From positions 52,285-116,284 of the IMG/VR virus record IMGVR_UViG_3300029610_000357: a stretch of 64,000 bases of DNA; one strand, 5' to 3'. Made by a program: the position numbers and the translations under genes. The stretch comes from a virus (lineage: Duplodnaviria; Heunggongvirae; Uroviricota; Caudoviricetes). The first letter of the stretch is position 1. The number at the start of each line of letters is the position of its first letter. Positions 3,696 through 40,997 of this stretch are shown piece after piece. The notes beneath the pieces were generated by a model that was not told where the DNA came from, did no database searches, and worked only from the letters and a program-made list of their open reading frames with translations.

Positions 3696-3770
3696 TCACA
3701 CCAACGAGAGTCGAACTCGTATTGCATCCGTGAAAGGGATGTGTCCTAAAACCATTTAGACGATGGTGCG
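3696..3770 (-). tRNA. tRNA-Glu(UUC)
   Basis: Acceptor CGCACCA/TGGTGTG, Glu-type D-arm GTCT..AGGAC, anticodon arm CATCC-CTTTCAC-GGATG, T-arm ACGAG-TTCGACT-CTCGT. Confidence 0.85.
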
Positions 3771-3776
3771 ATTTAG

Positions 3777-3868
3777 CGTACGGACTGGGCTACGACCCCA
3801 GGATACACATGTTCGTATGTATACAGGATTAGCAATCCTGCGCATTAAACCAGCTCTGCCACCCGTAC
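3777..3868 (-). tRNA. tRNA-Ser(GCU), type II
   Basis: Acceptor GTACGGG/TCCGTAC, anticodon arm CAGGA-TTGCTAA-TCCTG, 22-nt variable arm, T-arm CTGGG-GTCGTAG-CCCAG (non-canonical T-loop). Confidence 0.8.
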
Positions 3869-14965: not shown

Positions 14966-15517
14966 ATGAGAACAAAAAGAGAATTAATGACAGAAATTTT
15001 AGAAACAGCTGTAATCGAATCTGTAAAATCAGATTGTGAAGTTGTCCATTACGATGTAGAAGTACACGGGGAGATGCACAGATTACAAGTAATTACAGGT
15101 CAATTTTTTGTTGAGTTTCATCATCTGGAAGATGGAGAGTATAACTACAATTGTCCACACTTAGTCTATACTTTCGATCCATGGGAAATCGAAGAAGCGT
15201 TGGATACTTTCTTTATGATGGATGGAGAAACAGGAGAACTTCATGTTGACGAAAGCAAAATCGAACTTGGTATTGACTCTGATTTTACACCAGAAGCGAA
15301 ACCAGAAATCACACGAGAAGATATCGAGGAAGCGAAAAGAGAAGCACAAATTGAGATGCTTCATCGTATTAAAACCTATAGCCTTTCTGTAAGTTTTGAA
15401 AACGCAAAGAACCTCAACAAAACAGGGAACTGCTTTTATGATGGTAAAATAGAAGCATATAAAGACATTAATGAAATGTGTGAAGCTTTGCTATACCGAT
15501 TAGGAGAAGAAGATTAA
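14966..15517 (+). CDS. hypothetical protein (distant paralog of 14469..14948)
   Basis: EDIEEAKREAQIEMLHRI versus EYIEKAKREAKREILEHL. Confidence 0.6.
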   Translation: MRTKRELMTEILETAVIESVKSDCEVVHYDVEVHGEMHRLQVITGQFFVEFHHLEDGEYNYNCPHLVYTFDPWEIEEALDTFFMMDGETGELHVDESKIELGIDSDFTPEAKPEITREDIEEAKREAQIEMLHRIKTYSLSVSFENAKNLNKTGNCFYDGKIEAYKDINEMCEALLYRLGEED

Positions 15518-15594
15518 AGCAAATCAATACATAGAGGGGTAGTGATTTGATATATATCTAGTACAAATTATATATATTTGTAGCTAGAAAATCA

Positions 15595-15633
15595 GCCTTA
15601 GATAGCCAGTAAAGGAAATCTAAGGCTTTTTTT
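15595..15633 (+). terminator. rho-independent terminator
   Basis: AGCCTTAGAT-loop-ATCTAAGGCT followed by TTTTTTT. Confidence 0.85.
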
Positions 15634-15685
15634 GTATCTATAAATATATTAATTCTTGTGGATGCACAAGAGAAAGGAAGAGCCT

Positions 15686-15958
15686 ATGGGATTAACAAAA
15701 AAAGAAATCTGTGAACGCTCAGAAACCATTGCATATTACAGTGGTTTATGTGGCGTAGAAGTGAAACAAATTACTTATGGAATTGAAGACTACATGTACT
15801 GTGAGTCTGGAGCTTGGGGTGGTGGTAAGAGCTATCACAAACTGAAAATCCAGACAGACATCAAAGGAAATATGTTCGTTAAATTACACGGGTATAGACT
15901 ATTCTTAGATGAATTCATTCGTACAGGAAAGGAACAGACAAAGCTATGGGAACAATAA
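15686..15958 (+). CDS. hypothetical protein
   Basis: ATG 15686 after a GGAAG RBS. The track start at 15656 is less likely. Confidence 0.5.
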   Translation: MGLTKKEICERSETIAYYSGLCGVEVKQITYGIEDYMYCESGAWGGGKSYHKLKIQTDIKGNMFVKLHGYRLFLDEFIRTGKEQTKLWEQ

Positions 15959-16233
15959 CATCTTTAACATTGTTTGAACAACAATGTATGGAACAAAAGA
16001 TATTCAAACTGAAAACACTAAAAGATTTTGGTCATGCAACTTACAAAGGATTTACACTTCGCAATGGTTATAGATACGGAATCACAGAGGAAGACGGAAT
16101 CCATGTTGCGACTTCAAACTGGCAGCAAGGGAATTTCATTTACATGTACTTCTACAATGAATTAACAAACCAGTGGGAAGGATTGTGGATTGACTTAGAA
16201 GACGTAGAAATTGTGGAAGAGAAAGGAAATTAA
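15946..16233 (+). CDS. hypothetical protein
   Basis: ORF track; overlapping (coupled) start. Confidence 0.5.
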   Translation: MGTITSLTLFEQQCMEQKIFKLKTLKDFGHATYKGFTLRNGYRYGITEEDGIHVATSNWQQGNFIYMYFYNELTNQWEGLWIDLEDVEIVEEKGN

Positions 16234-16234
16234 G

Positions 16235-16675
16235 ATGGAAATTATAATTATTGCAAGTGCACTTTTTGGGATTATGACCGGATGGGTGTTAGGATACTCA
16301 ATTAAAGAAGCTGAGGTAAAAGATACAAAGAACTTAGTCGATAATCTGAACAAGTTAACCAGCAAAATAACCGAAGTCGAAAAGGAACTGGCAGAAACCA
16401 AAAAGGAAAGAGATTACGAAAAAAGCATGAACATTCATTGGTTCAATGAATATGAAAGAATACGAGAAAAACATTATAGAGAAATGTCAAAACTCCGCCA
16501 GCAAACGGACTTTTTCGCAGCTGATGGAATAGACAAGTTTGTGGAAATGCGAAAACTAAAAAGCAAATGTTCAGAAGCTGTCAAGTATGCTATGAAAATG
16601 TCTCATCCAGACAACAATGGAAACGCCGAAGACTTTATGAAGTTCAGAAAGCTTTATAAAGAAATAACAGAATAG
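16235..16675 (+). CDS. membrane-anchored coiled-coil protein with C-terminal J-domain-like HPD segment
   Basis: TM helix, then VKYAMKMSHPDNNGNAEDFMKFRKLYKEI. Paralog of 40360..40794. Confidence 0.55.
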   Translation: MEIIIIASALFGIMTGWVLGYSIKEAEVKDTKNLVDNLNKLTSKITEVEKELAETKKERDYEKSMNIHWFNEYERIREKHYREMSKLRQQTDFFAADGIDKFVEMRKLKSKCSEAVKYAMKMSHPDNNGNAEDFMKFRKLYKEITE

Positions 16676-16687
16676 GAAGTGAAACAT

Positions 16688-16984
16688 ATGTGGGAAATTG
16701 GAGATAGAGTGGTTGTTACTAAAGCCCCAGGTAGAACAATTGTAGCTAAGCTAGGCTACAAGGGAACAGTTATTGATGTAGTAGATACAAGCGTACTTGT
16801 TGAATTTGATAAATACATTGGTGGACATAGTGGAAGTTGGAGTTCTCGTAACGGAAAGTTCGGACATTGTTATTGGCTACATCAGCTTGACGATGCAGAC
16901 ACAATTGGGGCTTATGTAGACTTTGCTTTAAGAGAAGAAGACTGTGTGTGTAAGAAAATCAAAAGAAAAAACAACTTCTACTAA
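16688..16984 (+). CDS. KNNYY-tail family member 1 (group A)
   Basis: MWEIGDRVVV...VEFDKYIGGHSG...; ends KRKNNFY*. ATG 16688 preferred over GTG 16679. Confidence 0.8.
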   Translation: MWEIGDRVVVTKAPGRTIVAKLGYKGTVIDVVDTSVLVEFDKYIGGHSGSWSSRNGKFGHCYWLHQLDDADTIGAYVDFALREEDCVCKKIKRKNNFY

Positions 16985-17002
16985 AAGAAAGGCAAGGTAA
17001 AC

Positions 17003-17302
17003 ATGAGAGAACTTAAACTTGAAGATTGTAAAGTTGGGATGACTCTTAAGCTAAAGGAAGATTGTCCTTTTAGAAAGTATTGGGAAATAGATCCTAAGGA
17101 ACCGGTAAAGTGCATTGTCGTAGCAATGAACAGGAGTCGAAAAGATAACATTTTTGTAGATATCTACTATGAACATGAGCGAAAATGTACCCCAAAGAAT
17201 TGGTATTTCTATACAGAGGATTCATTAATAGACACTAACGATGATGAACTAATCTCAAAAAACTTAGAGTATCCGAACAAGCGAAAGAACAATTATTACT
17301 AA
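17003..17302 (+). CDS. KNNYY-tail family member 2 (group B)
   Basis: LKLEDCKVGMTLKLKEDCPF; ends KRKNNYY*. Confidence 0.8.
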   Translation: MRELKLEDCKVGMTLKLKEDCPFRKYWEIDPKEPVKCIVVAMNRSRKDNIFVDIYYEHERKCTPKNWYFYTEDSLIDTNDDELISKNLEYPNKRKNNYY

Positions 17303-17312
17303 GAGGTGTAAT

Positions 17313-17639
17313 ATGCAGAAAGAAAGAGAAATTCAATTTGAAGATTGTCATATTGGCGATGTTTTTAAGTTAGATAGACGCTCGCCATGGGTTATGGAAT
17401 GGATAATGGAATCAAATGGATACATCCCTAGAGAAGAAATCACAGCAGAGATTGTACATATGATAAATAATGGTGACATCAAAGAAGTTGGAATAAATGT
17501 TTATATAGGTAAAGCTTCATATGATCATTATGATACTTCTTATCTCCGAGAGGGAAGTAGGTATAAGGAAGACAATCTTGAAATGAATCTTAAAATGAAA
17601 AATCGTATCAAAGCAGGAAGAAAGAACAATTATTATTAG
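17313..17639 (+). CDS. KNNYY-tail family member 3 (group B)
   Basis: IQFEDCHIGDVFKLDRRSPW; ends GRKNNYY*. Confidence 0.8.
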   Translation: MQKEREIQFEDCHIGDVFKLDRRSPWVMEWIMESNGYIPREEITAEIVHMINNGDIKEVGINVYIGKASYDHYDTSYLREGSRYKEDNLEMNLKMKNRIKAGRKNNYY

Positions 17640-17649
17640 GAGTGGTTAT

Positions 17650-17958
17650 ATGAAGACAAAAGAAAGGGGAATTCGATTCGAAGATTGCCATGTTGGAGAT
17701 GTACTTAGGTTAAAAACAAGATGTCCTTTTGTGGACTTTTACCTTACATCTGAAGGAATTCCTGTGGCAAAAGAAGATAAGGTCACCGCAACAGTAGTTC
17801 ATAAAGGAAAAAATATTCTTGATGTAATAGTACATGTAAATGGAAAAAGATGTGCACTATATTGGGATTGTTGGCTTGCAAGTCCTACGGCTTATCGTGA
17901 ACATAATCTTCACATTAATGTCGATTCAAAGATTAATCGAAAGAACAACTATTATTAG
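17650..17958 (+). CDS. KNNYY-tail family member 4 (group B)
   Basis: IRFEDCHVGDVLRLKTRCPF; ends NRKNNYY*. Confidence 0.8.
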   Translation: MKTKERGIRFEDCHVGDVLRLKTRCPFVDFYLTSEGIPVAKEDKVTATVVHKGKNILDVIVHVNGKRCALYWDCWLASPTAYREHNLHINVDSKINRKNNYY

Positions 17959-17983
17959 ATATAAGAGAAAGGAAAATAAGGCT

Positions 17984-18277
17984 ATGGGATATTTTAAAGT
18001 AGGAGATAGAGTAGAAGTTATTAAAAGCCATACCGAGGATTCATGTATTGATCACTATGCTCCTGTAGGGCTTAAAGGAACTGTAGTTTATACAGAACCG
18101 AGACATTTGACAAAGCAAATAGCTGTTGAGTTTGATAAGTCTTTTAAAGAAGGACACGGTTGTGATGGAAAAGTAAGAGGTAAGCGAGGGCAGTGGTATG
18201 AATATGATCCACATTCCAATATATATTGGAAAAATTGCTTAAAAATCTTATCCAAAAAGAAAAACAACTATTACTAA
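17984..18277 (+). CDS. KNNYY-tail family member 5 (group A)
   Basis: MGYFKVGDRVEVIK...VEFDKSFKEGHG; ends KKKNNYY*. ATG 17984 after an AGGAAA RBS; the track start at 17840 overlaps the previous gene. Confidence 0.75.
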   Translation: MGYFKVGDRVEVIKSHTEDSCIDHYAPVGLKGTVVYTEPRHLTKQIAVEFDKSFKEGHGCDGKVRGKRGQWYEYDPHSNIYWKNCLKILSKKKNNYY

Positions 18278-18324
18278 AGGTATTTCAAAATCAGTGGAGT
18301 GATTTTTGTTAATACATGAAGAAA

Positions 18325-18349
18325 GGCGGGATTTATTCCCGTCTTTTTT
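18325..18349 (+). terminator. rho-independent terminator splitting the array
   Basis: GGCGGGA-tttat-TCCCGTC followed by TTTTTT. Confidence 0.75.
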
Positions 18350-18370
18350 CAAAACAGAAAGGAAATTAAG

Positions 18371-18766
18371 ATGAGCAAATTTAGATATTTAAATGAAGAA
18401 GAAACAAAAGTGTTATTACAGGTAACAGAATGGTTAGATAATCATTTCTTTAGTCCAGAAAATAAATTCGATGAAGAATATTTTGAGAAATACATGAGAG
18501 CAATCATTGACAACACAAGAGAAATGTACGAAGCGGTATACATTTGTGTGAACACAAAACCTGTAACTGTAATGATTTATGACTATGTGCTTGACATTAT
18601 TATTGCTGATGCACGAGTTGACAAAGAAGATAGAGAGATTGTAGAGATTGCCTTTACAACTTGGTTAATAAACATGACAGATAAACCATTTGAAAAGATT
18701 TTTGAATGGATGATTGAAGAAAGTTACAGGGGAAGAAAAGGAAGAGAGGATGAAGATAATGAATAG
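18371..18766 (+). CDS. hypothetical protein (no KNNYY tail)
   Basis: ORF track. Confidence 0.55.
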   Translation: MSKFRYLNEEETKVLLQVTEWLDNHFFSPENKFDEEYFEKYMRAIIDNTREMYEAVYICVNTKPVTVMIYDYVLDIIIADARVDKEDREIVEIAFTTWLINMTDKPFEKIFEWMIEESYRGRKGREDEDNE

Positions 18767-18902
18767 ATTTGAAACAGTAATGAAGTTAATTTGTTGGATT
18801 GCAGCAGTGACATTGGCATGGATGCACGTTTCAATTGTTGCAGTGATTGCACTTGCATTGGTTGGAACTTTTGGAAGCGAGGTTGATTTGAGTGCAAAGT
18901 AG
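18759..18902 (+). CDS. small membrane protein (47 aa)
   Basis: MNRFETVMKLICWIAAVTLAWMHVSIVAVIALALVGTF; two hydrophobic helices. Confidence 0.4.
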   Translation: MNRFETVMKLICWIAAVTLAWMHVSIVAVIALALVGTFGSEVDLSAK

Positions 18903-19212
18903 AGAAACGAGAAGAAAAGTACACTTTGGAGATTGTCATGTAGGCGATATTTTTAAGATAAGTTTGGATAGTCCTTGGTATGAGAAAGTAGGTCAATACC
19001 AATTTGAATTTAGTAGCGTTACTCTGTTCACCACACTAACAGTCAAAGTAGAAAAAATAAAACCAAGAGATGGAACCGTTTTAACACGCTTTTATATTGG
19101 TAATACACCAACAGAGTATAAATGGTGGTTTTTTAGAACTCCAGGGTCTGATATAGAAGCACTATCAGATAATCTTGAGTTTCTACCAAAGAGAAAGAAT
19201 AACTACTGGTAA
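18892..19212 (+). CDS. KNNYY-tail family member 6 (group B)
   Basis: GTG start. VHFGDCHVGDIFKISLDSPW; ends KRKNNYW*. Confidence 0.7.
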   Translation: MQSRETRRKVHFGDCHVGDIFKISLDSPWYEKVGQYQFEFSSVTLFTTLTVKVEKIKPRDGTVLTRFYIGNTPTEYKWWFFRTPGSDIEALSDNLEFLPKRKNNYW

Positions 19213-19226
19213 AGAGAGGTGTGAGG

Positions 19227-19544
19227 ATGGAAGAGAAAAGAGAAGTATGCTTCGATGATTGCGAAGTTGGCATGTTTTTTAGGATTGATAAAGACTGTCC
19301 ATGGATGTATGACAATGAGTGGATGGATGGTTTTGATACATTGACAAACGCAGATGAGTTAAAAGTTAAAATTATCGATAAAGATGCTGATGATAGCAGT
19401 GTTGAGATAGAATTTTGGGCAGATGGTCAAAAGACAGATATAACAGATTGGCTCTATCAGTTTGAAGACGATCCAGAAGACAGAATTGGAAATAACCTTG
19501 AGTTTATATTAAAGAGGAAAAATAGAAAAAATAACTATTGGTGA
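19227..19544 (+). CDS. KNNYY-tail family member 7 (group B)
   Basis: MEEKREVCFDDCEVGMFFRIDKDCPW; ends NRKNNYW*. Confidence 0.8.
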   Translation: MEEKREVCFDDCEVGMFFRIDKDCPWMYDNEWMDGFDTLTNADELKVKIIDKDADDSSVEIEFWADGQKTDITDWLYQFEDDPEDRIGNNLEFILKRKNRKNNYW

Positions 19545-19554
19545 GGTGGTGTAA

Positions 19555-19815
19555 ATGGATAATGAATTAAAAATTGGAATGAAGTTCTTAGAAGTAAAAA
19601 CCGGAATTGTCTGGAAGCTTACAGATATGAATTTTATACAAGAAGGGTTTTATATAATAGACAAATCATTGTGTTTTCAAGCTGTACGTATAAATACAGA
19701 CGAGGATGATGTATGGAGAAGTACATCGTCAATGATACCTAAGACAATGCTCGAAAGAAGATTGAAAAAAGGCGAATGGAAACAAATAAACAATAGAAAA
19801 AACAATTACTATTGA
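19555..19815 (+). CDS. KNNYY-tail family member 8 (group C)
   Basis: Ends NRKNNYY*. Confidence 0.8.
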   Translation: MDNELKIGMKFLEVKTGIVWKLTDMNFIQEGFYIIDKSLCFQAVRINTDEDDVWRSTSSMIPKTMLERRLKKGEWKQINNRKNNYY

Positions 19816-19837
19816 TTAATAGTAGAAAGGACATATT

Positions 19838-20977
19838 ATGGAGGATTTAAGATTAGTAACAACAGAAGAATTTAATGGAGTTGATTGCAACTTTTACAAG
19901 GCAGATAGTAACATGTGGATGACCAGAGGGCAGATTGGTAAAGCTTTAGGATATCACAACCCAAGGATTGCAATCGGGAAAATACATACTGCACATAGAG
20001 ATAGACTTGATCCACTTTCAGTTGATACCAATTTAGGGTCTACTGATGGAAAAGAATATTCTACTTATATATATAATGAAAGAGGCATCTTTGAAATCTG
20101 TAGATGGTCGAGACAGCCAAAAGCAAATGAATTTATGGATTGGGTATGGGACATTATAGAAGCTTACAGACATGGAGAATTCCAGAGAAAGCCTAGGGAA
20201 ACAGCCATTACACCTGTTGAGAAATTCTTAGATGGAATGCAGAATATGTTCTTAGAAATGAGAGAAGAGAACAAAATATTCAAAGATACTGTGTTGAAGA
20301 TTTTAGAATCTCAGCAAGGACAGGAAGTACAAAAACCTGTTGAAAAACTTGAAGCTCAAGAGAAAACTGTTAATCAAGTAAAAACAAAAGCAGCTGTTAA
20401 GCCAGTTGTTAAGATTGAAAACCCTAGATTAGACACTTGGAAGTTCGAAATTGGTACTAAAGCAGCTTATATTGTTTTTAATGGAAATGAATATAAAACA
20501 AAAGGAAAAGTATTCTCAGCATGTTATTCAAAAATGAAGAATGTGTATGGAATTTGTTGGTCACAGGAAAATAAAGAATACAGAAGAGCTTTCGGATTAG
20601 AATCTCAGAGAGGTAGATTAAGTACTTTAGATGTTGTATTCAATGATGAAAATTTGAAAGACCTGTTTGACAGTATTCTTGATGGAATATATGAAAACAC
20701 AAAAAGAAAAGCTATAAAGAAAAATACGGGAACCAATCCAGAAAAAGATTGGCAATATTATAAAGAAAAGATTCAAAAACTTTGTGAGCAAACAGGCAAC
20801 AAAAGTTTAGGCGGAAGCTCTATTTACTCAGGAATCATTAGAAAGATGGATGTAGACTGGAGCAAGTATGAAACAAACAAAAAGAAAACTGAATTAGTTA
20901 GAAAGTATCCAGAGTTATTTGCAGAGTTCTCTAAGACAGCGGATAAATATTTAGAGGAGAAGTTAAATGAGTATTAA
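19838..20977 (+). CDS. Bro-N-like DNA-binding domain protein interrupting the array
   Basis: N-terminus FNGVDCNFYKADSNMWMTRGQIGKALGYHNPRIAIGKIH resembles the Bro-N/antirepressor pattern. Confidence 0.5.
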   Translation: MEDLRLVTTEEFNGVDCNFYKADSNMWMTRGQIGKALGYHNPRIAIGKIHTAHRDRLDPLSVDTNLGSTDGKEYSTYIYNERGIFEICRWSRQPKANEFMDWVWDIIEAYRHGEFQRKPRETAITPVEKFLDGMQNMFLEMREENKIFKDTVLKILESQQGQEVQKPVEKLEAQEKTVNQVKTKAAVKPVVKIENPRLDTWKFEIGTKAAYIVFNGNEYKTKGKVFSACYSKMKNVYGICWSQENKEYRRAFGLESQRGRLSTLDVVFNDENLKDLFDSILDGIYENTKRKAIKKNTGTNPEKDWQYYKEKIQKLCEQTGNKSLGGSSIYSGIIRKMDVDWSKYETNKKKTELVRKYPELFAEFSKTADKYLEEKLNEY

Positions 20978-21086
20978 AATTTTAGGGCTTCGTCAAGATT
21001 GCTACAAAGTAATCATTGATGGAGTCCTTTTTAAATTCCCAACAGAACAAGAGTTTTTGGAATTCTTAGAGGAGATTGAGATATGA
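20967..21086 (+). CDS. small ORF (39 aa), coupled at both ends
   Basis: Own translation MSIKILGLRQDCYKVIIDGVLFKFPTEQEFLEFLEEIEI*. ATGA overlap with the next gene. Confidence 0.35.
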   Translation: MSIKILGLRQDCYKVIIDGVLFKFPTEQEFLEFLEEIEI

Positions 21087-21361
21087 GTTTTAGATTTGAA
21101 GTAGGTCAAGAGTTGGAATTACACAATAACTTGACGGATATGAAAGTTTACATGAGATCGGGAACGGTTGTTCGTATCTTAAGTAGAAAAACAAGAATGG
21201 ATCATACACAAGAGGTTGAGAGAAATCGTTACAAGATTGCATATGAATTTCATACAAATTTTTTGAAAATTGGAGATGGTTGTTGCCACTCTGGAAAAGA
21301 CTTTGTCTGGGAAGAAGATTTAATTAGAGCTGTCGGTCAACGGAAAAATAATTATTATTGA
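21083..21361 (+). CDS. KNNYY-tail family member 9 (group E singleton)
   Basis: Ends QRKNNYY*. Confidence 0.8.
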   Translation: MSFRFEVGQELELHNNLTDMKVYMRSGTVVRILSRKTRMDHTQEVERNRYKIAYEFHTNFLKIGDGCCHSGKDFVWEEDLIRAVGQRKNNYY

Positions 21362-21373
21362 GAGGTGATTAAA

Positions 21374-21643
21374 ATGTGGAAAGTTGGAGATAGAGTCGTA
21401 ATTATTCAAGATACTAGGAGACCTTTAAAATCCTTTGTAGGCTTTAAAGGAACTGTTAACTTTGTAGAAGAGGATGGGATAGGTGTAGCTTTTGACAAAT
21501 ATGTAAACGGTCATATGTTAGGAGGGAGTTGCCAAGACGGTCATGGATGGTATTTGTCCACAGACGGAGAGAACGAAAACGAAGCCGAAGCAAATGGAGT
21601 AAGAGTCAAGAAAATTAACAACAGAAAAAATAATTATTGGTAG
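21374..21643 (+). CDS. KNNYY-tail family member 10 (group A)
   Basis: MWKVGDRVVII...VAFDKYVNGH; ends NRKNNYW*. Confidence 0.8.
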   Translation: MWKVGDRVVIIQDTRRPLKSFVGFKGTVNFVEEDGIGVAFDKYVNGHMLGGSCQDGHGWYLSTDGENENEAEANGVRVKKINNRKNNYW

Positions 21644-21652
21644 GTGATAGGA

Positions 21653-21925
21653 ATGTGGGAAAAAGGTACAAGGGTTAGAATTATAAAATCAAATAGATCT
21701 ACAACACCAGTTGGTATCATAGGTACTGTGGTTTACATACGTAAGGATAAAAACGATCGTTTTATAGTAGAGTTTGACGAACCCATGGATGGGAATACCT
21801 TAACTGTTCTTTGTGATTGCAAACCGAACTGCTGGTGGTGGTTTGATAATGTTCCGGGGAGAGTTGTTGAAACAGATGGTATAACAATTGAAAAAATAGG
21901 AAAAAGAAAAAACAATTATTACTAA
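21653..21925 (+). CDS. KNNYY-tail family member 11 (group A)
   Basis: MWEKGTRVRII...VEFDEPMDG; ends KRKNNYY*. Confidence 0.8.
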   Translation: MWEKGTRVRIIKSNRSTTPVGIIGTVVYIRKDKNDRFIVEFDEPMDGNTLTVLCDCKPNCWWWFDNVPGRVVETDGITIEKIGKRKNNYY

Positions 21926-21937
21926 GGTGGTGAGAAT

Positions 21938-22249
21938 ATGTGGGAGATTGGAGATAGAGTGGCTGTTACAGACTTGGGCAAAGCCTCACAAGAGGATTTT
22001 GGAGTTGAAATAAAGGTTGGATACAAAGGAACTATTATCAACTTTTTAAAGGTTGCTGCCCCATGAAGTCCTGATGAGATAATTAAATTCTTAGTAGAGT
22101 TTGACGAATCCATGGGTGGACATAGTGGAAATGGAGCTTATGAAGGAAAGCGGGGACATTGTTGGTGGTTTGATTATTGTTTAGAAAAGGTTACTATCAC
22201 AGATGGCATAAGCATTGAGCAAGTCAAAAGGAAAAATAATTTTTACTAA
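21938..22249 (+). pseudogene. KNNYY-tail family member 12 (group A) with one in-frame TGA at 22064-22066
   Basis: Own translation MWEIGDRVAVTDLGK...KVAAP*SPDEIIKFLVEFDESMGGHSGNG...VKRKNNFY*. Family features are intact on both sides of the stop. Confidence 0.55.
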
Positions 22250-22261
22250 GGGGTGATTAAA

Positions 22262-22495
22262 ATGTGGGAAGTAGGTGACAGAGTAGTAGTTACTCGTGGA
22301 ATTAAAGCTAGTAGCGTATTTGAGACTAAAGCGAAAGGGACAGTCATTGCTATAGATGCGGAATTTACAATACCCGTATTGGTTGAAATAGATGGAACAG
22401 GAACAAGTATGTGGTTCTATGAAAATGGTGATGATTTAATCTGGGGCGGCATTACTTGCACACGAGCAAAAAAGAGAAAAAACAATTATTATTGA
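22262..22495 (+). CDS. KNNYY-tail family member 13 (group A)
   Basis: MWEVGDRVVVTRG; ends KRKNNYY*. Confidence 0.8.
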   Translation: MWEVGDRVVVTRGIKASSVFETKAKGTVIAIDAEFTIPVLVEIDGTGTSMWFYENGDDLIWGGITCTRAKKRKNNYY

Positions 22496-22511
22496 GAAAG
22501 GATGATGACAG

Positions 22512-22799
22512 GTGTTTAAGGTTGGAGATAGGATCGTATTAACAGAAGAAAGCCGCCAACATTGCAATATATTTGATGAACATCCGGGAGATATCGCAAC
22601 GGTTATTAGAGTTTCGCAAGTAACGAATGAACATGGTTATGAATGTGTTTTAGAATTTGATAAACATATTGGTGGACATGATGGATTAATCGATGCTAGA
22701 GGCAAGAACGGTCATTGTGTTATCTATTATTTTTGTTCAACACAGTGGGATAAGTATTTTAGGAAAATCCAAACCAAACGTAAGAATAACTATTATTGA
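22512..22799 (+). CDS. KNNYY-tail family member 14 (group A)
   Basis: GTG start. FKVGDRIVL...LEFDKHIGGHDG; ends KRKNNYY*. Confidence 0.75.
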   Translation: MFKVGDRIVLTEESRQHCNIFDEHPGDIATVIRVSQVTNEHGYECVLEFDKHIGGHDGLIDARGKNGHCVIYYFCSTQWDKYFRKIQTKRKNNYY

Positions 22800-22814
22800 G
22801 AAAGAGGTGATCGT

Positions 22815-23132
22815 ATGCCAGAGGATGTAAAGTACCGTCCAGTTCCTAAAGGATATAAAGGTGTTTTTAGACTAAGAAAAGATATAATATCCTTAAACAA
22901 TGAATTTTATGGGGCATGGGGCATTATAGACGACAAATTTTTAATCGATGAAGATTATTATAATGAAGAAAATGAATTTAAGGGAGATCCTAGTCATGTA
23001 ATTCGAGCAAGTTTTTACCCTAGCCTTTTAGATCTGCAAAGAGGTGAAAATCTTATTAGAGAAGTAGGAAGAGTGTCTGGGACAGAAAAGTGTTGTTATA
23101 TTCCTTTTAAAAGAAAAAATAATTACTATTAA
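22815..23132 (+). CDS. KNNYY-tail family member 15 (group D)
   Basis: KYRPVPKGYKGVFRLRKD; ends KRKNNYY*. Confidence 0.8.
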   Translation: MPEDVKYRPVPKGYKGVFRLRKDIISLNNEFYGAWGIIDDKFLIDEDYYNEENEFKGDPSHVIRASFYPSLLDLQRGENLIREVGRVSGTEKCCYIPFKRKNNYY

Positions 23133-23147
23133 GAAAGAGGTGATCAA

Positions 23148-23462
23148 ATGGAGAATGATGGTAAATATCCTCCAGTACCTAAAGGATACAAGGGTATTTT
23201 TAGAGTTAGACCTGATATGATAGAGTCAAATAATGTGTTCTATGGAGCATATGGTATTACAGGAAAAGGTATTATAGAAGACAGTGATTATTTAGAAGAC
23301 CAAGGAGAATTTACAGGAAATCCACATCATATAATTAAAGCCATTTTTTATCAAACCTATGAAGACTTAAAGAGCAGAGAATGTATGATACAGGGAAGGC
23401 CTGTTAAAATAAGAGAATGCTTGCTTTATCCAGTATCCAACAAGAAGAACAATTACTGGTAG
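23148..23462 (+). CDS. KNNYY-tail family member 16 (group D)
   Basis: KYPPVPKGYKGIFRVRPD; ends NKKNNYW*. Confidence 0.8.
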   Translation: MENDGKYPPVPKGYKGIFRVRPDMIESNNVFYGAYGITGKGIIEDSDYLEDQGEFTGNPHHIIKAIFYQTYEDLKSRECMIQGRPVKIRECLLYPVSNKKNNYW

Positions 23463-23472
23463 GTGGTTTAAG

Positions 23473-23742
23473 ATGATAGAAGCAAAAGATATTAAAGAGG
23501 GTATGAAAATTAAGTATGAAGGCTGGGAATGGACTATAACAAAAGTGTTTGCAAAATATAATAATGTCTTGGATCTTCGGAATGGTTATACTAAAAAAAT
23601 CATTGATCAAGATAGTTCATTGATTTGGATTGAAGCATCGAAGAGACGCTTTGTGCCTGAATCAATGACTATGGAATGGTTCTTTAAAGAACTGAAATAT
23701 GGAACAATAAAGATTTTAAATCGTAAAAATAATTATTATTGA
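23473..23742 (+). CDS. KNNYY-tail family member 17 (group C)
   Basis: IKEGMKIKYEGWEWTITKV; ends NRKNNYY*. Confidence 0.8.
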   Translation: MIEAKDIKEGMKIKYEGWEWTITKVFAKYNNVLDLRNGYTKKIIDQDSSLIWIEASKRRFVPESMTMEWFFKELKYGTIKILNRKNNYY

Positions 23743-23748
23743 GGTGAT

Positions 23749-24039
23749 ATGATGTATTTAGAAGACATTAAAGTTGGTCAGAGAGTGAATTATCGAGGTC
23801 ATTCCTATACAATAACTAAAAATGTTGTAAAGCGATGGAAAACAATAAGCCCCCATTCCTTATATTCATACATTAAGATAAGTACAAATTATTATAGATC
23901 ACGAATGTATTTCCAAAGAGTGGAAGACAAAAGTGAATCAGTTGACGGATTTTGGTTATTATATGACGAGATTGAAGAAAAAATGGATCGAGGGCTTATT
24001 AAATTTTTGAACATGTCAAAGAAAAATAATTATTATTAA
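23749..24039 (+). CDS. KNNYY-tail family member 18 (group C)
   Basis: IKVGQRVNYRGHSYTITKN; ends SKKNNYY*. Confidence 0.8.
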   Translation: MMYLEDIKVGQRVNYRGHSYTITKNVVKRWKTISPHSLYSYIKISTNYYRSRMYFQRVEDKSESVDGFWLLYDEIEEKMDRGLIKFLNMSKKNNYY

Positions 24040-24054
24040 AGAGGGTGTTACAAA

Positions 24055-25347
24055 GTGAACGAGATCAATAAAAGGAAATTAGAACTGTTCATGGATGATC
24101 AGCTATGGAGACAAAATATCACACATCAGCAAAGCAAAGGTGTACATAGAGATGTATTAAGAATTGTATGTGATCCAGAATACAAAGCACGGCTTTTAGG
24201 AATGATCTGGGATGGTAATTACAAAATTGCACCTCCGTATGTAGTAGAAATTCCTAAAGACAATGGAAAAGTAAGAGAAGTGTATGTTAATCAGCCAATT
24301 GACAGATTTGTTATGACACAAATCAATTATGTTTATATGCAATTATATGGTCATATGATTCATCCAAGATGTGTGTCTTATCAGAAAGGAATTGGAGTTA
24401 AAAATATCGTAGATGATATTTGTATGGAGCTTAAGAAACATCAAGGAGCTGTTGGGTATAAGGTAGACATTAGTAAGTATTTTGACAGTGTAAGCCGTGA
24501 GGTACTTAATGAAATGATTGATAAAATTGATACAGGAAGTCCTATTGATCAGATTGTAAGAGATTATTATATGGATGATTGTATCATTGATCAGAAAAGA
24601 AATGTTATTGAGAAATACAAAAGTATGACTCAAGGTTGTGCAGTGTCTACATTCTTTGCCAATTGTGTTTTAAGAGATGTAGACGAAGAGTTAAGCAAGA
24701 TGGATATTATTTATTACAGATATTCAGATGATATCTTGATGGTTGGTAAGGATGCAGATAAGGCTTTGAAGATGTTAGGAGAGATGTTAGAAACAAAAGG
24801 ACTTACATTAAATCCCAAAAAGGTAGAAACAGTCAGTACAGATCAATGGTTTACATTCTTAGGAGTGCGAATTAATGGACAGAAGAGAAGTTTTTCTGAA
24901 AAGAGCTTAAAGGAATTTCAGAAACACATTAGAGAATATGTAAATAAGAAAGCAGGAATTGGTAGCGTAAAAGTTGCAATCAGACAAATTAATAAATATC
25001 TGTATTTGAATTTCTTAAGGAATCCGAATGAGTTTGGTTGGGCTGAGTATTTCTTTAGTATTGTGAATGTCGAAGATGATATTAAGACATTAGATATGTG
25101 GATTAAAGATACACTCAGAGGTTTGTATACTGGTAAGAGAAAGGTTGGTGGTCTTGGTGTAAATAAAGTAACTGATGAATGTGGAGTATTAAGAGGGAAA
25201 GGAAAAAACGTAAGTGCAAATCTTGGTAAAACAAGAAGCGATAAAGACATTTTAGAAGAAGCAGGATATATCAGCATGAATGAAATGTATCATCAGTTTA
25301 GATACAGTAAAGAATTGTACAGGGCTTCATTGACGGCTTTATCTTAA
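24055..25347 (+). CDS. reverse transcriptase (stand-alone, class unassigned)
   Basis: RT motifs IPKDNGKVREVY, YKVDISKYFDSV, QGCAVSTFFANCVL, YYRYSDDILMVG (YxDD), LTLNPKKVE, FTFLGVRI, plus a ~140-aa C-terminal extension. GTG start 15 nt after the last KNNYY gene. Confidence 0.9.
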   Translation: MNEINKRKLELFMDDQLWRQNITHQQSKGVHRDVLRIVCDPEYKARLLGMIWDGNYKIAPPYVVEIPKDNGKVREVYVNQPIDRFVMTQINYVYMQLYGHMIHPRCVSYQKGIGVKNIVDDICMELKKHQGAVGYKVDISKYFDSVSREVLNEMIDKIDTGSPIDQIVRDYYMDDCIIDQKRNVIEKYKSMTQGCAVSTFFANCVLRDVDEELSKMDIIYYRYSDDILMVGKDADKALKMLGEMLETKGLTLNPKKVETVSTDQWFTFLGVRINGQKRSFSEKSLKEFQKHIREYVNKKAGIGSVKVAIRQINKYLYLNFLRNPNEFGWAEYFFSIVNVEDDIKTLDMWIKDTLRGLYTGKRKVGGLGVNKVTDECGVLRGKGKNVSANLGKTRSDKDILEEAGYISMNEMYHQFRYSKELYRASLTALS

Positions 25348-25403
25348 GTCAAACCTAACACGAGGTACTTATGTGAGATGTTATAAGTCAAATTAGATCA
25401 CTA

Positions 25404-25480
25404 GGAAGCTCTGGTGATTCCATGCATGGTTGATAACCAGCATTCCATCACCACTTCTTCCCAGATCTTATCATCATAAA
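25404..25480 (+). other. hairpin-box module A1: ~58-nt imperfect hairpin followed by ATCATAAA
   Basis: GGAAG-ctc-TGGTGA..ATGC-a-TGGTT-gat-AACCA-GCAT..TCACCA-ctt-CTTCC, then ATCATAAA at 25473-25480. Confidence 0.5.
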
Positions 25481-25563
25481 GGGAATTTAGAAACGTGTTA
25501 TTAACATGAACATAAGAAAGTTACTATGGACGTTGTATGTGAGACAATGGAATTACATATAAG

Positions 25564-25640
25564 GCGCGTTGAAGCTGCAGGATGACTGGCAATACATTGA
25601 CCAAGTCATCCCTGCAGCTCAACCGCTTTATAATCATAAA
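25564..25640 (+). other. hairpin-box module A2
   Basis: GCGCGTTGAAGCTGCAGGATGACTGG-loop-CCAAGTCATCCCTGCAGCTCAACCGC, then ATCATAAA at 25633-25640. Confidence 0.55.
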
Positions 25641-25721
25641 AGAATAAAGGAACATAGCATTATTGTGAGCATACAAACAAGCTAACATGGGCTAAACATA
25701 CGAGACGTTGAATCATACATA

Positions 25722-25815
25722 ATAAGGGCACAGCTGCCTTATGCAGCGGGAAATTAGTCTCCTCGACAATAATTTCACCGCTGCCACAGGCGTGCGTGCC
25801 CTTATTAATCATAAA
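25722..25815 (+). other. hairpin-box module A3
   Basis: ATAAGGGCAC...GCAGCGGGAAATT-loop-AATTTCACCGCTGC...GTGCCCTTAT, then ATCATAAACCAATAGAGAAA at 25808. Confidence 0.55.
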
Positions 25816-25864
25816 CCAATAGAGAAAACATGTCGCCAATGTAGAGTATGTAGAAAGGAAAATC

Positions 25865-26401
25865 ATGAAAAGTTTATTTAAAGTATTGTATGAGCTGTCA
25901 CAAGGAAATACCTTAATGATTAATAGTTGCATGTCTTTTAGAATGACAACTGATCTATACAAAAGACAAGTGAGATTTAAGAAGTATAAGGTTGTTGATC
26001 AAGGAAGCGTAGTAAGTGATGTGACATTGTGTAGTGGAGAAGTTATTGAGTATGATGACTTAATAAAGGAAGGAGATTTAGATTTTATATTGCCAACTGA
26101 ATTAAATGAAAAAGAAAATCCATATGAGGTTATTGAATACCTGTATGGATTATTTTATTGCTCAGTTCCTGATAGATCTGCTGTTCAAAAGAAACAAAAT
26201 TTTATAGCAAAAGGATTAAATGATTTTGGGGCAAATGATTTTACAGGAATGAGAAGAAGTGAAATTCAGCCATTGTTAGAGCTCTATGTGTTACTCGCTG
26301 GAATGAAAGGATGGATCACTTGGAAAGATGATAAGTTGTTCTTTTGGAAAGGTGGACATAAGAGTTTGTATATATATAGAAAATGGATTTTAGGTTATTA
26401 G
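25865..26401 (+). CDS. hypothetical protein
   Basis: ORF track; AGGAAA RBS. Confidence 0.5.
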   Translation: MKSLFKVLYELSQGNTLMINSCMSFRMTTDLYKRQVRFKKYKVVDQGSVVSDVTLCSGEVIEYDDLIKEGDLDFILPTELNEKENPYEVIEYLYGLFYCSVPDRSAVQKKQNFIAKGLNDFGANDFTGMRRSEIQPLLELYVLLAGMKGWITWKDDKLFFWKGGHKSLYIYRKWILGY

Positions 26402-26418
26402 GAAAGGAAGAATGTAAA

Positions 26419-27180
26419 ATGAATGTAGAAAAGAGTTTAGAAAAAGCAGGAGTAGACACAAAGAAATATCCTTCATTAGCTATGCAGAATATTTTAGGAT
26501 ATCAAGGGAAAGCGTTTGCAGAAAATTCATACCTGTATAAAAAGATTATGGAAGATGGACATGTGTTTAATCCTTATATACACAGAAGATGGCTTCCATA
26601 TCAGTTTATGAATGCTGTCCATTGGACAAGACGGTATTATGTAGAGACTATTGGTTATGTAAAGATGCTTGAAAAAGAATTGATGCGTGGCAATAATGTA
26701 GATAATTGGAAATATATGTACGATAAATTTGGAAAAGAGCTTAATGCTTTATATACACTCTCAAAAAGAGATAAAAAAGCGTATAAAGAAAGATGGGCTG
26801 CTTTTGGAAGGTTAGAAATTTTGAATTATTTTTCTCAAGGGTTTGATTGTATAGGGATAAATCAGAATACATTCTTGGAAATGAAAAATTTATTAGCGGA
26901 TGAAAGATTTGAAGCTGAACGATATTGGCGATATACTAATTGTTTATTGTATAAACAGTCACAATTTAGAAAAGATTTGGTAACAACAACTTTCCATTCA
27001 GGAATTTATTTTACATTAAAACACATTATGATGTTTGATTATGACAAATTACATATGTCTTCATCCCAAAAAGAAAGCCTAAAACGAATTAGAGAAGACT
27101 TAATTAATGGAGATTTCAATTATGAGCAGGCTTTTACAATTATTGAAGATTACGTAGCAAGATATTACAATCCAAGATAG
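26419..27180 (+). CDS. hypothetical protein
   Basis: ATG 26419 after a GGAAAGGAAG RBS. Confidence 0.55.
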   Translation: MNVEKSLEKAGVDTKKYPSLAMQNILGYQGKAFAENSYLYKKIMEDGHVFNPYIHRRWLPYQFMNAVHWTRRYYVETIGYVKMLEKELMRGNNVDNWKYMYDKFGKELNALYTLSKRDKKAYKERWAAFGRLEILNYFSQGFDCIGINQNTFLEMKNLLADERFEAERYWRYTNCLLYKQSQFRKDLVTTTFHSGIYFTLKHIMMFDYDKLHMSSSQKESLKRIREDLINGDFNYEQAFTIIEDYVARYYNPR

Positions 27181-27193
27181 AGAGGGGAATTAT

Positions 27194-27691
27194 ATGCCAG
27201 AAGAAGTAAAGAAATTAACTATTAAAGAAGCAGATGAGTTTATTAAAAAGAAAGTAATCGGAGTTCTCATAAAAGCAGATGTAACAATAATAGTAAATGA
27301 ATTAGAAGCTATTTATGGAGATTCGTTAGCAAATGGAACGGTTGGAGATTCGTTTTATATTTATAACTGTCCAGAAAATTATGATGAATCAGATTATGAA
27401 GAGCTTGAGTATATTGACTATGATGATATGTGTGAAGATGATATTCGTGAAGAGAGAGCTGAAGCAGGAGATTTCAATCTTAAAGTATATAAGTGGTTCA
27501 TTGTTGATCCAAGATTTACAGAATTATTAAAAGATTTAGGAGAGATAGTTGCTCCAGATATTAACCTTTGGGGATGTTGTGAAGACATTGAAGACGCAAG
27601 CGAAGCAACTGTAATTGAAGAATTTTTTGAGAGAATGCAGATTCTGTATGGACAAAAGAATGCAATTATTACAGAAAAATTGAGTGCCTAA
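27194..27691 (+). CDS. acidic hypothetical protein
   Basis: ORF track; D/E-rich. Confidence 0.55.
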   Translation: MPEEVKKLTIKEADEFIKKKVIGVLIKADVTIIVNELEAIYGDSLANGTVGDSFYIYNCPENYDESDYEELEYIDYDDMCEDDIREERAEAGDFNLKVYKWFIVDPRFTELLKDLGEIVAPDINLWGCCEDIEDASEATVIEEFFERMQILYGQKNAIITEKLSA

Positions 27692-27743
27692 ACCAACAAA
27701 AGGGAGATGTACCCTTTGTAGAAATACTTATCATCAACCATCA

Positions 27744-27859
27744 AAGAAGGAGGATCTTCAGAACCCTCCGCATTGATTACGCTAAACATCACTTCGTAAT
27801 GATTTAGCAGCATCAACTGCGAGAGGAGTTCATGAAGATCCTCCTTCTTGAATCATAAA
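27744..27859 (+). other. hairpin-box module B1
   Basis: 17-bp perfect outer stem AAGAAGGAGGATCTTCA/TGAAGATCCTCCTTCTT enclosing further pairing, then ATCATAAATACATAGAGG at 27852. Confidence 0.55.
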
Positions 27860-27955
27860 TACATAGAGGAATACATCGAAGATAAGTTGTTCTACATTTT
27901 TTTTGCAAGAGATATACTTGCTGATTTAATGAATTGTGTTTGAATCACTCACATA

Positions 27956-28076
27956 ATCAGGAGAAAGGAGGCATAATCTCATCTCCTTCACTGGCAAGCC
28001 AGGAAGGACTTGATGAGATTACACTCCGCTGCGGCGTCATTGTGCCTCCATACTCCTGATCATGTTTGATCATAAA
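27956..28076 (+). other. hairpin-box module B2
   Basis: ATCAGGAG..GGAGGCA-TAATCTCATC..GATGAGATTA..TGCCTCC..CTCCTGAT, then ATCATAAACCAATAGAGAAA at 28069. The box plus 12 nt are identical to A3. Confidence 0.55.
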
Positions 28077-28149
28077 CCAATAGAGAAATATATCACCTCA
28101 CAATGAGTTAAATCTGTAACTATTAATTTACATAGAAAAGGAGAAACAG

Positions 28150-28722
28150 ATGAAAGCGATTTTTAAAGGAGAAACGGTTGTAAGAACTAAATTAACATTA
28201 GATACTGGGCTTGAGAAATTAGATGGATCTGATGTTAGGTATTTTGTAAGAGAGCCTAAACTGATACATGAGTGTACGAATGAAGATTGGGGGATTGTGT
28301 TAGAAAAAGATCTTTCATTCAATAAGATTATGCTTATTAATTCTTATATCGATGAAGTAGTTTTAGATGGAATTACACTTGAGTTTCCAGATATTGTATA
28401 TCTTAATCTTGAAGAAGATAAAGTAATTTTTGAAGTTGGTGGTTCTTATACAATTAAAGATAAAGACGAGGAAGAGAAAATTGAAACATACCACAAGCTT
28501 ATGGAAGCTTACAATAAGCAAGTAAGAACTAGAGAAGAGAACGAAGATGATTGCTGTGGTTGTGGATTCTGCTCAAAAGAGGGTGACTTCTCTGGAGAGG
28601 AATATGATGAAATAAAAGGGTTCAATGAAGAGGACATTGAAAAGAAAGCAATGGATGATCTAGATGATCTAAATGAAATTCTTACAGCATTCTTTGGGGA
28701 TGTTCCGGGATTCAAGTGTTAG
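28150..28722 (+). CDS. acidic hypothetical protein
   Basis: ORF track; GGAGAAA RBS. Confidence 0.55.
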   Translation: MKAIFKGETVVRTKLTLDTGLEKLDGSDVRYFVREPKLIHECTNEDWGIVLEKDLSFNKIMLINSYIDEVVLDGITLEFPDIVYLNLEEDKVIFEVGGSYTIKDKDEEEKIETYHKLMEAYNKQVRTREENEDDCCGCGFCSKEGDFSGEEYDEIKGFNEEDIEKKAMDDLDDLNEILTAFFGDVPGFKC

Positions 28723-28807: not shown

Positions 28808-29596
28808 ATGGCAACAGAGTTTGACAAACGAATGAAAGCTTATGAATGTGTCTCAAGACAGTACTTAACAAGAAGAGTACCAGTTGCGATCAGAGTAGAT
28901 GGAAAGGCATTTCATACATTCACTAGAGGGTTTCAGAAACCGTTCGATGAAGTGCTTAGCAATGCAATGCAGGCCACAATGATGAAAATGTGTAGACAGA
29001 TTCAAGGTTGTGTGTTTGCTTACACACAGAGTGATGAAATTACATTTATTCTTATCGATTATCAGAAGCTAAATTCTGATGGCTGGTTTAACTACCGTAC
29101 TGATAAGATGTGTAGCATTGCAGCGAGTATGGCTACTATGGAGTTCAATAAGGTATTTAGTGCTTTTGTTTATGGATTTAAGGTAAACAAGGGAGAAGAC
29201 ATATCAAGTGAAGATATGGAAGTGCTTAAAGCCTATGAGAAATCTAAAGAACGTGGAGCTATGTTTGATGCTAGAGCATTTTCAATTCCAAAAGAAGAAG
29301 TTACGAATCTAATTTATTGGAGACAGCAAGACGCTATGAGGAATGCAGTTCAGATGGTTGGACAAGCATTTTATTCCCACAAAGAGCTTCAGGGTGTTAA
29401 TTGTGAGATGCTTAAAGAAATGTTACTGGCTGATAAGGGAATTGATTGGGATAAGATTCCTGTGAAATATCAGAGAGGTAGCTGTTGTGTCAAGGTTGAT
29501 GGTGAATGGACTATTGACAATAACATTTCTATCTTCAGAGGTAGTGACAGAGAGCAAATTGATAAGCTTGTGTTTGTTGAGAGTGAAGAGAACTGA
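28808..29596 (+). CDS. Thg1-like protein (tRNA-His guanylyltransferase family, 3'-5' polymerase)
   Basis: FDKRMKAYE...PVAIRVDGKAFHTFTRGFQKPFD...AYTQSDEITFIL matches the Thg1 catalytic pattern (RxDG..F, SDE). Confidence 0.75.
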   Translation: MATEFDKRMKAYECVSRQYLTRRVPVAIRVDGKAFHTFTRGFQKPFDEVLSNAMQATMMKMCRQIQGCVFAYTQSDEITFILIDYQKLNSDGWFNYRTDKMCSIAASMATMEFNKVFSAFVYGFKVNKGEDISSEDMEVLKAYEKSKERGAMFDARAFSIPKEEVTNLIYWRQQDAMRNAVQMVGQAFYSHKELQGVNCEMLKEMLLADKGIDWDKIPVKYQRGSCCVKVDGEWTIDNNISIFRGSDREQIDKLVFVESEEN

Positions 29597-32481: not shown

Positions 32482-32631
32482 GGGGACATAGCTTAATAGG
32501 TAAAGCAAAACTATATTTTTCCATAAAGAACTTAAAACTAAAATTTTCATATTAAATATAAACATTTTGTACCTCCCTATTGTAATAAAATAACACTTAT
32601 ATTTATGTGGGTTCGAGTCCCACTGTCCCCA
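32482..32631 (+). tRNA. tRNA-like gene interrupted by a ~75-nt AT-rich insertion; anticodon unresolved
   Basis: GGGGACA-TA-GCTT-AATAGGTA-AAGC ... GTGGG-TTCGAGT-CCCAC-TGTCCCC-A. Acceptor, D- and T-arms are perfect, but no 5-7-5 anticodon arm can be drawn. Confidence 0.45.
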
Positions 32632-40794: not shown

Positions 40795-40856
40795 ATACAT
40801 AAAGAAACTAATCGAGTATCAGATTTAGGATACAAGGCAGTATTAATCACATAGAG

Positions 40857-40936
40857 ATACGAAGACCCCGGCGACTGGAATCTACCACAGGAAACATTCC
40901 AAGTCGCCAGTCTTCGTATGGCTCTAAGATCATAAA
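40857..40936 (+). other. hairpin-box module C
   Basis: ATACGAAGAC..GCGACT-TGGAAT-loop-ATTCCA-AGTCGCC-GTCTTCGTAT, then ATCATAAA at 40929-40936. Confidence 0.55.
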
Positions 40937-40997
40937 TGAAATAAAGCAAGATACTATACTGATGAGTATTCTATTTAAAAGAAAAGGAGATTACATA

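Follow-up and report, generated by a model that had tools for sequence, protein, structure and literature searches.

A UG27 reverse transcriptase of a large gut phage, with two partner genes and arrays of hairpin modules downstream

Reverse transcriptases (RTs) of the UG27 group were defined by Mestre et al. (2022, NAR) as Class 2 members of the UG/Abi RTs (PMC9226505). They are carried mainly by human-gut phages of Bacteroidetes and Firmicutes, show no enrichment in defence islands and associate with two gene clusters of unassigned function, 346 and 337, as well as with a putative intergenic non-coding RNA (ncRNA) located after the RT and described as 'three long stem-loops' (PMC9226505). UG27 belongs to the small number of RT groups found chiefly in phages themselves and not deployed against them. 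The related Class 2 enzymes DRT2, DRT3a, DRT9 and DRT10 use an ncRNA of a similar kind; the products of DRT3, DRT9 and DRT10 are tandem repeats or homopolymers, and in DRT9 and DRT10 the DNA is attached to a C-terminal serine or tyrosine of the RT itself. Here we analyse an RT locus within 64,000 nt (positions 52,285 to 116,284) of the IMG/VR virus record IMGVR_UViG_3300029610_000357, a tailed phage of the Caudoviricetes; this whole stretch is hereafter called the window. Judged from its sequence, the open reading frame (ORF) at 24055-25347 is a genuine RT and a member of UG27, and the locus is a new instance of this already known group, a complete system in a large gut phage. A preliminary description of the window had held that the context of this RT fits none of the classic classes and had linked the enzyme to 18 small upstream genes whose products end in a basic and aromatic tail, referred to below as the tailed genes. 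Our analysis points instead to the downstream side of the RT.

The RT gene and the spacer that separates it from the last tailed gene are positioned as follows.

24055..25347, + strand: RT gene, GTG start, 430 aa, TAA stop at 25345-25347
24040..24054, + strand: 15-nt spacer, AGAGGGTGTTACAAA, with a Shine-Dalgarno-like GAGGGTG; last tailed gene on its left, RT start on its right

The protein covers the Pfam profile RVT_1 whole (1-205/205, E 6.9e-21), carries YSDD at residues 223-226 and has 1481 homologs at E<=1e-20; D138, Y223, S224, D225 and D226 are invariant across 34 RT homologs of 44-85% identity. With the full profile and the invariant catalytic residues, the description of a GTG-initiated, 430-aa RT bearing YSDD and starting 15 nt after a tailed gene is confirmed. 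The gene preceding the RT terminates ...AAAAATAATTATTATTAA at 24039, its protein ending in ...SKKNNYY. Among PADLOC profiles, RT_UG27 matched with 558 bits (E 3.2e-168), RT residues 5-428 aligning to positions 2-419 of a 420-position profile, vs 171 bits (5.9e-51) for the second-best family, UG26, and ~100 bits (about 1e-27 to 1e-30) for UG17, Drt9 and UG4. UG17 and Drt9 rank third and fourth among the UG/DRT-named PADLOC matches, at about 1e-29, and DRT9 gave the best non-intron match in a PDB search with the RT (7e-14). The claim that the context fits no classic class consequently falls: the RT sits firmly in UG27, with the canonical partners RTas346 and RTas337 and three hairpins directly downstream, a known class together with its known neighbours, which is the outcome that the preliminary description had itself named as refuting.

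Other RT classes were considered and rejected. The RT lies far under the curated cut-offs for the group II, retron, Drt2, Drt3a and Drt4 profiles. For a group II intron RT, TIGR04416 reached 121.5 bits vs a cut-off of 300, no group II family matched in Rfam, and the upstream DNA is coding, in agreement with the preliminary description on the lack of an intron RNA. For a retron, NF038233 scored 72.9 bits vs a cut-off of 235 and no Rfam retron (msr/msd) family matched; the Rfam scan returned no real family at the gathering score and, at E<=1, merely chance matches to miRNA hairpins. Two further exclusions made earlier also stand. Between 14000 and 32000 direct repeats are confined to the paralogous tailed genes and do not touch the RT flank, so that no TR/VR pair of a diversity-generating retroelement is present; cas genes, which a CRISPR-associated RT would call for, are absent. 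AbiK and Abi-P2 are longer proteins with a helical-repeat C-terminal domain that synthesise untemplated DNA from the RT's own tyrosine and work without ncRNA. They share with the window RT the UG/Abi type of bacterial RT but differ from this 430-aa enzyme with its adjoining partner ncRNA array, and neither appears among the best 25 of the 74 PADLOC matches; the analogy with them that had been proposed was not borne out.

The DNA downstream of the RT contains repeated modules, each headed by a long hairpin (MFE, minimum free energy of the predicted fold).

25348..25864, + strand: ncRNA array A, three modules, 517 nt, in the RT-RTas346 interval; MFE -163.5 kcal/mol, z -8.0
25395-25468, + strand: array A hairpin 1, then ATCATAAA at 25473
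25558-25632, + strand: array A hairpin 2, then ATCATAAA at 25633
25720-25807, + strand: array A hairpin 3, then ATCATAAA at 25808
27692..28149, + strand: ncRNA array B, two modules; MFE -160 kcal/mol, z -9.96
about 27744-27849, + strand: first array B hairpin, then ATCATAAATACATAGAGGAA at 27852
about 27951-28065, + strand: second array B hairpin, then ATCATAAACCAATAGAGAAA at 28069
40795..40961, + strand: solitary module, hairpin 40852-40926, then ATCATAAATGAAATAAAGCAAG at 40929; fold z -4.7

The window total is six modules (3 + 2 + 1), five of them near the RT and the solitary one 15 kb downstream of it. Each comprises a long hairpin of variable sequence, a single-stranded AUC(N)UAAA, a gap of N3-8, a UAAAG-like element and a short stem followed by a GAGUAU-like element; the conserved single-stranded stretch between long hairpin and short stem spans ~20 nt, and the layout matches that of Class 2 ncRNAs. 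Hairpins of array A measure 74-88 nt, and a [UA]A[AG]AG element follows every ATCATAAA. The motif of the window lineage reads AUCAUAAA, 3-7 nt, (A/U)UA(A/G)AG(A/G)AA, and the pattern ATCATAAAN{3,8}WARAGRAA occurs four times in the window vs 0.01 expected. The window has 17 ATCATAAA sites, of which just 6 carry a strong hairpin, all six non-coding and on the + strand. Basal stems of the modules are irregular, with 1-31 uninterrupted pairs. The hairpin sequences gave only chance matches of 11-12 nt to the rest of the window and the ncRNA region had no match among GenBank phages; a promoter and terminator scan of 15500-28200 returned counts equal to those of shuffled sequences, with no terminator on the + strand. 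The ORF after the solitary module encodes an AAA ATPase (AAA domain). Its annotated ATG at 40962 sits within the GAUGAGUAU element of the module, and translation more likely starts from the ATG at 40998, which follows AAAGGAG.

Arrays A and B bracket three genes.

25865..26401, + strand: RTas346, 178 aa, PADLOC RTas346 E 2.4e-13
26419..27180, + strand: RTas337, PADLOC RTas337 E 5.1e-10; the ORF opens at 26383
27194..27691, + strand: acidic protein of 165 aa in the interval between RTas337 and array B; by blastp, same-position homologs in loci L012 (49%) and L013 (35%) only

Because eight of ten RTas337 homologs begin at the internal MNVEKSL, the ATG at 26419 is the probable start of this gene, and RTas346 and RTas337 therefore do not overlap. 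RTas346 homologs follow the RT and a non-coding gap in L012, L013, L016-L022, L024, L029 and L030, and the complete order of RT, non-coding gap, 346 and 337 is kept in L012, L013, L016-L022 and L024, over RT identities from 85% to 42%. Neither RTas346 nor RTas337 matched a Pfam or PHROG family, the AF2 model of RTas346 was unusable (pLDDT 38.6), and the 165-aa protein fell in no Pfam, PHROG or PADLOC family. Gene order varies in two loci. In L014 (8932-11287) the RTas346 homolog precedes the RT, and two tailed genes with the endings LRNW and LKNY intervene. In L025 (9989-14302; RT 35% identity) the partner positions are taken by two genes of 150 and 277 aa directly after the RT, and no similarity of these to RTas346 or RTas337 was found by blastp; a nine-module array lies 3' of both genes, with a break of ~450 nt between modules 1 and 2.

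In comparison with the described UG27 systems of gut phages (PMC9226505), the window shares the full-length RT_UG27 match, the adjoining RTas346 and RTas337, the three long stem-loops and the setting in a large tailed-phage genome from a gut-type metagenome. It differs in three further modules, two of them in array B and one solitary, and in an upstream array of small tailed genes that is specific to the window clade. The phage setting is further seen in its near-identical relatives, which are IMG/VR viral contigs of 70-134 kb, and in the phage-type genes close by, Bro-N/anti-repressor and Thg1. The window thereby offers a complete and well-delimited example of UG27: RT, five adjacent modules, two partner genes and a dispersed sixth module.

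A scan of 19 other distinct loci detected hairpin-plus-motif modules in 16 of them; L029, L032 and L040 gave none. The hairpin architecture recurs beside the UG27 RT in every sampled lineage whose RT-adjoining non-coding stretch was scanned using the matching motif. In 57 modules curated from 13 loci, the hairpins are 45-136 nt long, all with z < -3.7 (median -7.5), and unrelated in sequence. Across lineages the architecture is kept and the motif diverges; outside the window lineage the motif takes these forms.

AUCUAAA: L015-17, L025, L030
AUGUAAA: L018
AUCGUAAA: L019, L021, L024
AUCGA(A/C)A: Bacteroides phage BS-TP1

The number of modules per UG27 locus ranges from 1 to 9, the following counts referring to first arrays only.

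1 module (one detected): L034
2 modules: L012, L013, L014, L016
3 modules: window (array A)
4 modules: L017, L030
4-6 modules: L015 to L019
8-9 modules: L021, L024, L025, BS-TP1

Second arrays equivalent to array B occur in L001, L012, L013 and L014, and extra hairpin modules lie 1-3 kb past the first array in L018, L021, L030 and L035. Arrays are also present in loci derived from metagenome-assembled genomes. The cultured Bacteroides phage BS-TP1 (L033, PQ571274.1) encodes a UG27-like RT at 79351-80613 (38% identity, 98% coverage), gp79, annotated as 'tail protein' and followed by 1.35 kb of unannotated DNA with about eight modules. BS-TP1 is thus a cultured and tractable UG27 relative whose RT is mis-annotated. 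The array architecture itself has probably been published before, since a September 2026 preprint (bioRxiv 10.64898/2026.09.22.753630) contains the wording 'ncRNA array' ten times and 'UG27 ncRNA array' twice; with 33 occurrences of 'hairpin' and 24 of 'cDNA', it may hold cDNA data as well.

With DRT10 (UG17), DRT9 (UG28), DRT3a and DRT2 (UG2), the window system has in common the Class 2 lineage of UG/Abi RTs and an adjacent structured ncRNA in which stem-loops frame a conserved single-stranded stretch. It differs from them in being phage-encoded rather than located in a host defence island, in having no SLATT or other recognised effector and in its ncRNA, which is a multi-module array and not a single unit; A-B-A' microhomology was not demonstrable in this analysis. 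Retrons likewise have an RT adjoining a hairpin-rich non-coding RNA, but their RT profiles match the window RT at 1e-16 to 1e-20 only, under the curated cut-off, and UG27 differs by the conserved single-stranded element 3' of each hairpin and by the arraying of its modules.

Family, partners and module architecture come from the analysis itself, whereas template, priming and role are proposed by analogy with the Class 2 relatives. On this footing we consider it probable, with some reservation, that the locus is a phage UG27 system in which the RT copies module RNA, primes from its own C-terminal region and yields a product that serves the phage, the tailed genes being syntenic neighbours. The RT would bind each module via the stem-loops flanking the conserved single-stranded stretch, as DRT2, DRT3a, DRT9 and DRT10 suggest. 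The cDNA it would then make, possibly in the form of short tandem repeats, would be a copy of this stretch or, with lower probability, of the hairpin. By the same analogy, synthesis may start at a hydroxyl in the C-terminal region of the RT, where Y405 and S407, both in GY[IV]S[ML], or Y421 are candidate priming residues. Within this motif, ~26 residues before the end, G404-Y405 is invariant and S407 near-invariant, with Thr in some homologs; Y421, nine residues from the RT end, is mostly conserved. The product would be used by the phage during infection, for counter-defence or takeover, rather than in host defence. The RT, array A, RTas346 and RTas337 would make up the system, joined in the window lineage by the 165-aa protein and array B. 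The fallback offered in the preliminary description, namely action of the RT on the hairpin RNAs downstream, is the reading favoured by the evidence from the family as a whole.

Several points weigh against this proposal. No UG27 product has been observed, and no experimental work on UG27 was found in the papers that could be read. Direct repeats flanking the long hairpins are at chance level (a median of 0.7 of shuffles is at least as good), and A-B-A' repeats within the 22-nt single-stranded motif average 3.63 nt vs 3.51 nt in composition-matched shuffles. Covariation across nine near-identical strains, with two compensatory pairs and no significance, is too sparse to prove the helices. At the position of Y421, 7 of 34 homologs have Phe, and for this reason no single priming residue is named. 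The two tailed genes between the RTas346 homolog and the RT of L014 give a weak hint of a tail linkage. Finally, the position of some modules fits a cis-regulatory role equally well: they are dispersed over the window as a group of three, a group of two and a single module at a distance of 15 kb from the RT, and in each window array the last module stops 20-40 nt short of the ribosome-binding site and start codon that serve the following gene. The modules could accordingly be cis-acting RNA elements for processing, stability, antitermination or translational control, unconnected with reverse transcription, with the RT template elsewhere. We regard this as improbable. Almost every UG27 locus sampled has an array next to the RT or the partner genes despite the divergence of the motif, which takes the forms AUCAUAAA, AUCUAAA, AUGUAAA, AUCGUAAA and AUCGAAA, and regulators of a 5' untranslated region (UTR) would hardly be expected to form tandem arrays of as many as nine modules. 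Moreover, the characterised Class 2 UG RTs DRT2, DRT3a, DRT9 and DRT10 use an ncRNA of this type.

A different question is which part of the module would be copied. The long hairpins are the large and variable part, set between conserved flanks, and their variation among nine near-identical strains (alignment A2) is uneven: hairpin 1 (25395-25468) has 32.5% variable columns with indels in both arms, vs 11.6% for the RT gene, a ~3-fold difference, and hairpin 2 (25558-25632) is nearly invariant with 1.3%. Such a pattern, together with module numbers running from 1 to 9, would suit hairpins that are themselves reverse-transcribed, either into retron msd-like hairpin single-stranded DNA or into DRT2-like unit-length concatemers, each module being a separate cargo. 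DRT2 is indeed a Class 2 RT that uses a long template, and in 6 of 57 modules the hairpin is flanked by a 6-7 nt direct repeat, e.g., AATCATA around 25720-25807. Taken over all modules, however, such repeats are not above shuffles. A DRT2-like template bounded by direct repeats was rejected, the longest substring shared by the 5' and 3' flanks being no better than in shuffles. Unit lengths have no multiple-of-3 bias and no consistently stop-free frame, which speaks against a neo-like gene, and the PADLOC retron RT profiles match far more weakly (1e-16) than UG27. We therefore hold copying of the hairpins to be unlikely, though less so than a purely cis-acting role, and retain the single-stranded stretch as the probable template of the UG27 RT.

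Upstream of the RT lies the array that had motivated the earlier interpretation.

16679..24039, + strand: small tailed genes with [KR]KNN[YF][YW] ends; neighbour of the RT, probably outside the system

As previously counted, 18 tailed ORFs lie on the + strand and 16 of them end in YY (12) or YW (4); the other two end in FY. Unrelated genes break the array at 18371-18902 and at 19838-20977 (Bro-N). The junctions between genes had been said to be of one type, which stands in that a stop codon is followed by a Shine-Dalgarno sequence within 3-20 nt at all of them; it does not extend to a conserved DNA string. The tail is a protein-level tag at the C-terminus. Its codons vary synonymously (AAC/AAT 9:9 and 6:12, TAT/TAC, AGA/CGA/CGT/CGG/AGG), each of the three stop codons occurs and the sequences downstream differ, so that the tail is a peptide motif; a repeat acting at the DNA or RNA level was ruled out by this free variation of synonymous and stop codons. 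At least four unrelated N-terminal domain families bear the tail, some with SH3-like Pfam matches (E 2e-4 and 3e-4, under the curated cut-off), and homologs of one of these N-terminal domains occur both with and without it.

The preliminary description had proposed that the RT primes DNA synthesis in trans on the C-terminal tyrosines of the 18 KNNYY proteins, giving protein-DNA conjugates. If true, ~18 small proteins from at least four domain families, several of them probably SH3-like, would be covalently tagged with RNA-templated DNA, a new type of phage-made protein-DNA conjugate. A C-terminal tyrosine is a chemically suitable acceptor, because DRT9 and DRT10 need a priming Ser or Tyr at the protein C-terminus. 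The gene directly preceding the RT is a tailed one in the window, in those of its near-identical relatives L001-L010 that were examined and in L012-L014, and in L014 tailed genes even separate the RTas346 homolog from the RT. Furthermore, IMG/VR contigs with at least two KNNYY-tail matches all carry the RT. This co-occurrence is nevertheless confounded by phylogeny because these contigs form a single clade, and the immediate upstream position is confined to the loci just named, with RT identities of 55-100%. The tail changes with lineage, from [KR]KNNY[YW] in the window and L012 to KRKNNY in L013 and L[RK]N[YW] in L014. In the sister lineage L015 the tails (INNF, INNL, INQV, INFV and similar) end in F, L, V or I and thus have no hydroxyl, and the array is downstream of the RT; L013 has its tailed genes dispersed across 18 kb. 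No tailed genes were found within 10 kb of the RT in about 17 UG27 lineages with RTs of 33-52% identity (L016-L019, L021, L024, L025, L029, L030, L032, L033-L036, L038 and L040), and the UG27 family is for this reason not dependent on tails. The characterised cases of priming, DRT9 and DRT10, operate in cis, on the RT. Since tail priming had been deduced from adjacency alone, as seen in one clade, and tail-free UG27 loci exist, we consider it very improbable. It is just as doubtful that, within the window clade, the [KR]KNNY[YW] tails evolved as trans acceptors for the UG27 RT. Most likely, the KNNYY genes encode lineage-specific small proteins that stand beside the RT through synteny in one clade, and the real partners are on the downstream side of the RT.

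The tailed array contains a further variable block. One tailed gene of the window is broken in two, at 21938-22066 (42 aa) and 22112-22249 (45 aa, the back half, counted among the 18). At the position of this break, the near-identical relatives examined, L001 (3366-7633), L004 and L005, hold a five-gene block inside the tailed array, encoding products of 114 aa, 79 aa ending in ..VVKADSA[FMRC], 574 aa, 321 aa and a 227-aa ThiF/E1-like enzyme. All five genes are missing from the window, as if recombination of one paralogous tailed gene with another had deleted them. The ThiF-like block, including small ..VVKADSA-ending proteins, is found again just upstream of the RT in L012 (3936-9125), L013 (4324-9360), L014 (3912-8020), L015 (3367-7248), L016, L017 and L019, the RT identities of all these lineages ranging over 48-85%; it is absent from L018 and L021-L033. 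This block could be a peptide- or protein-modifying system.

Elsewhere in the window, a Thg1-like 3'-5' nucleotidyltransferase is encoded at 28808-29596 on the + strand (PF04446, E 7.8e-32), ~660 nt past ncRNA array B, a position kept in L012 and not in L013. A full-length ROOL RNA (Rfam RF03087, 306 bits) lies at 2594-3205 on the - strand, inside a cluster of six tRNAs at 2263-3868 on the same strand. A tRNA match at 32482-32631 on the + strand extends over 150 nt vs 71 positions in the model, which may indicate an intron or a large insertion within a tRNA gene.

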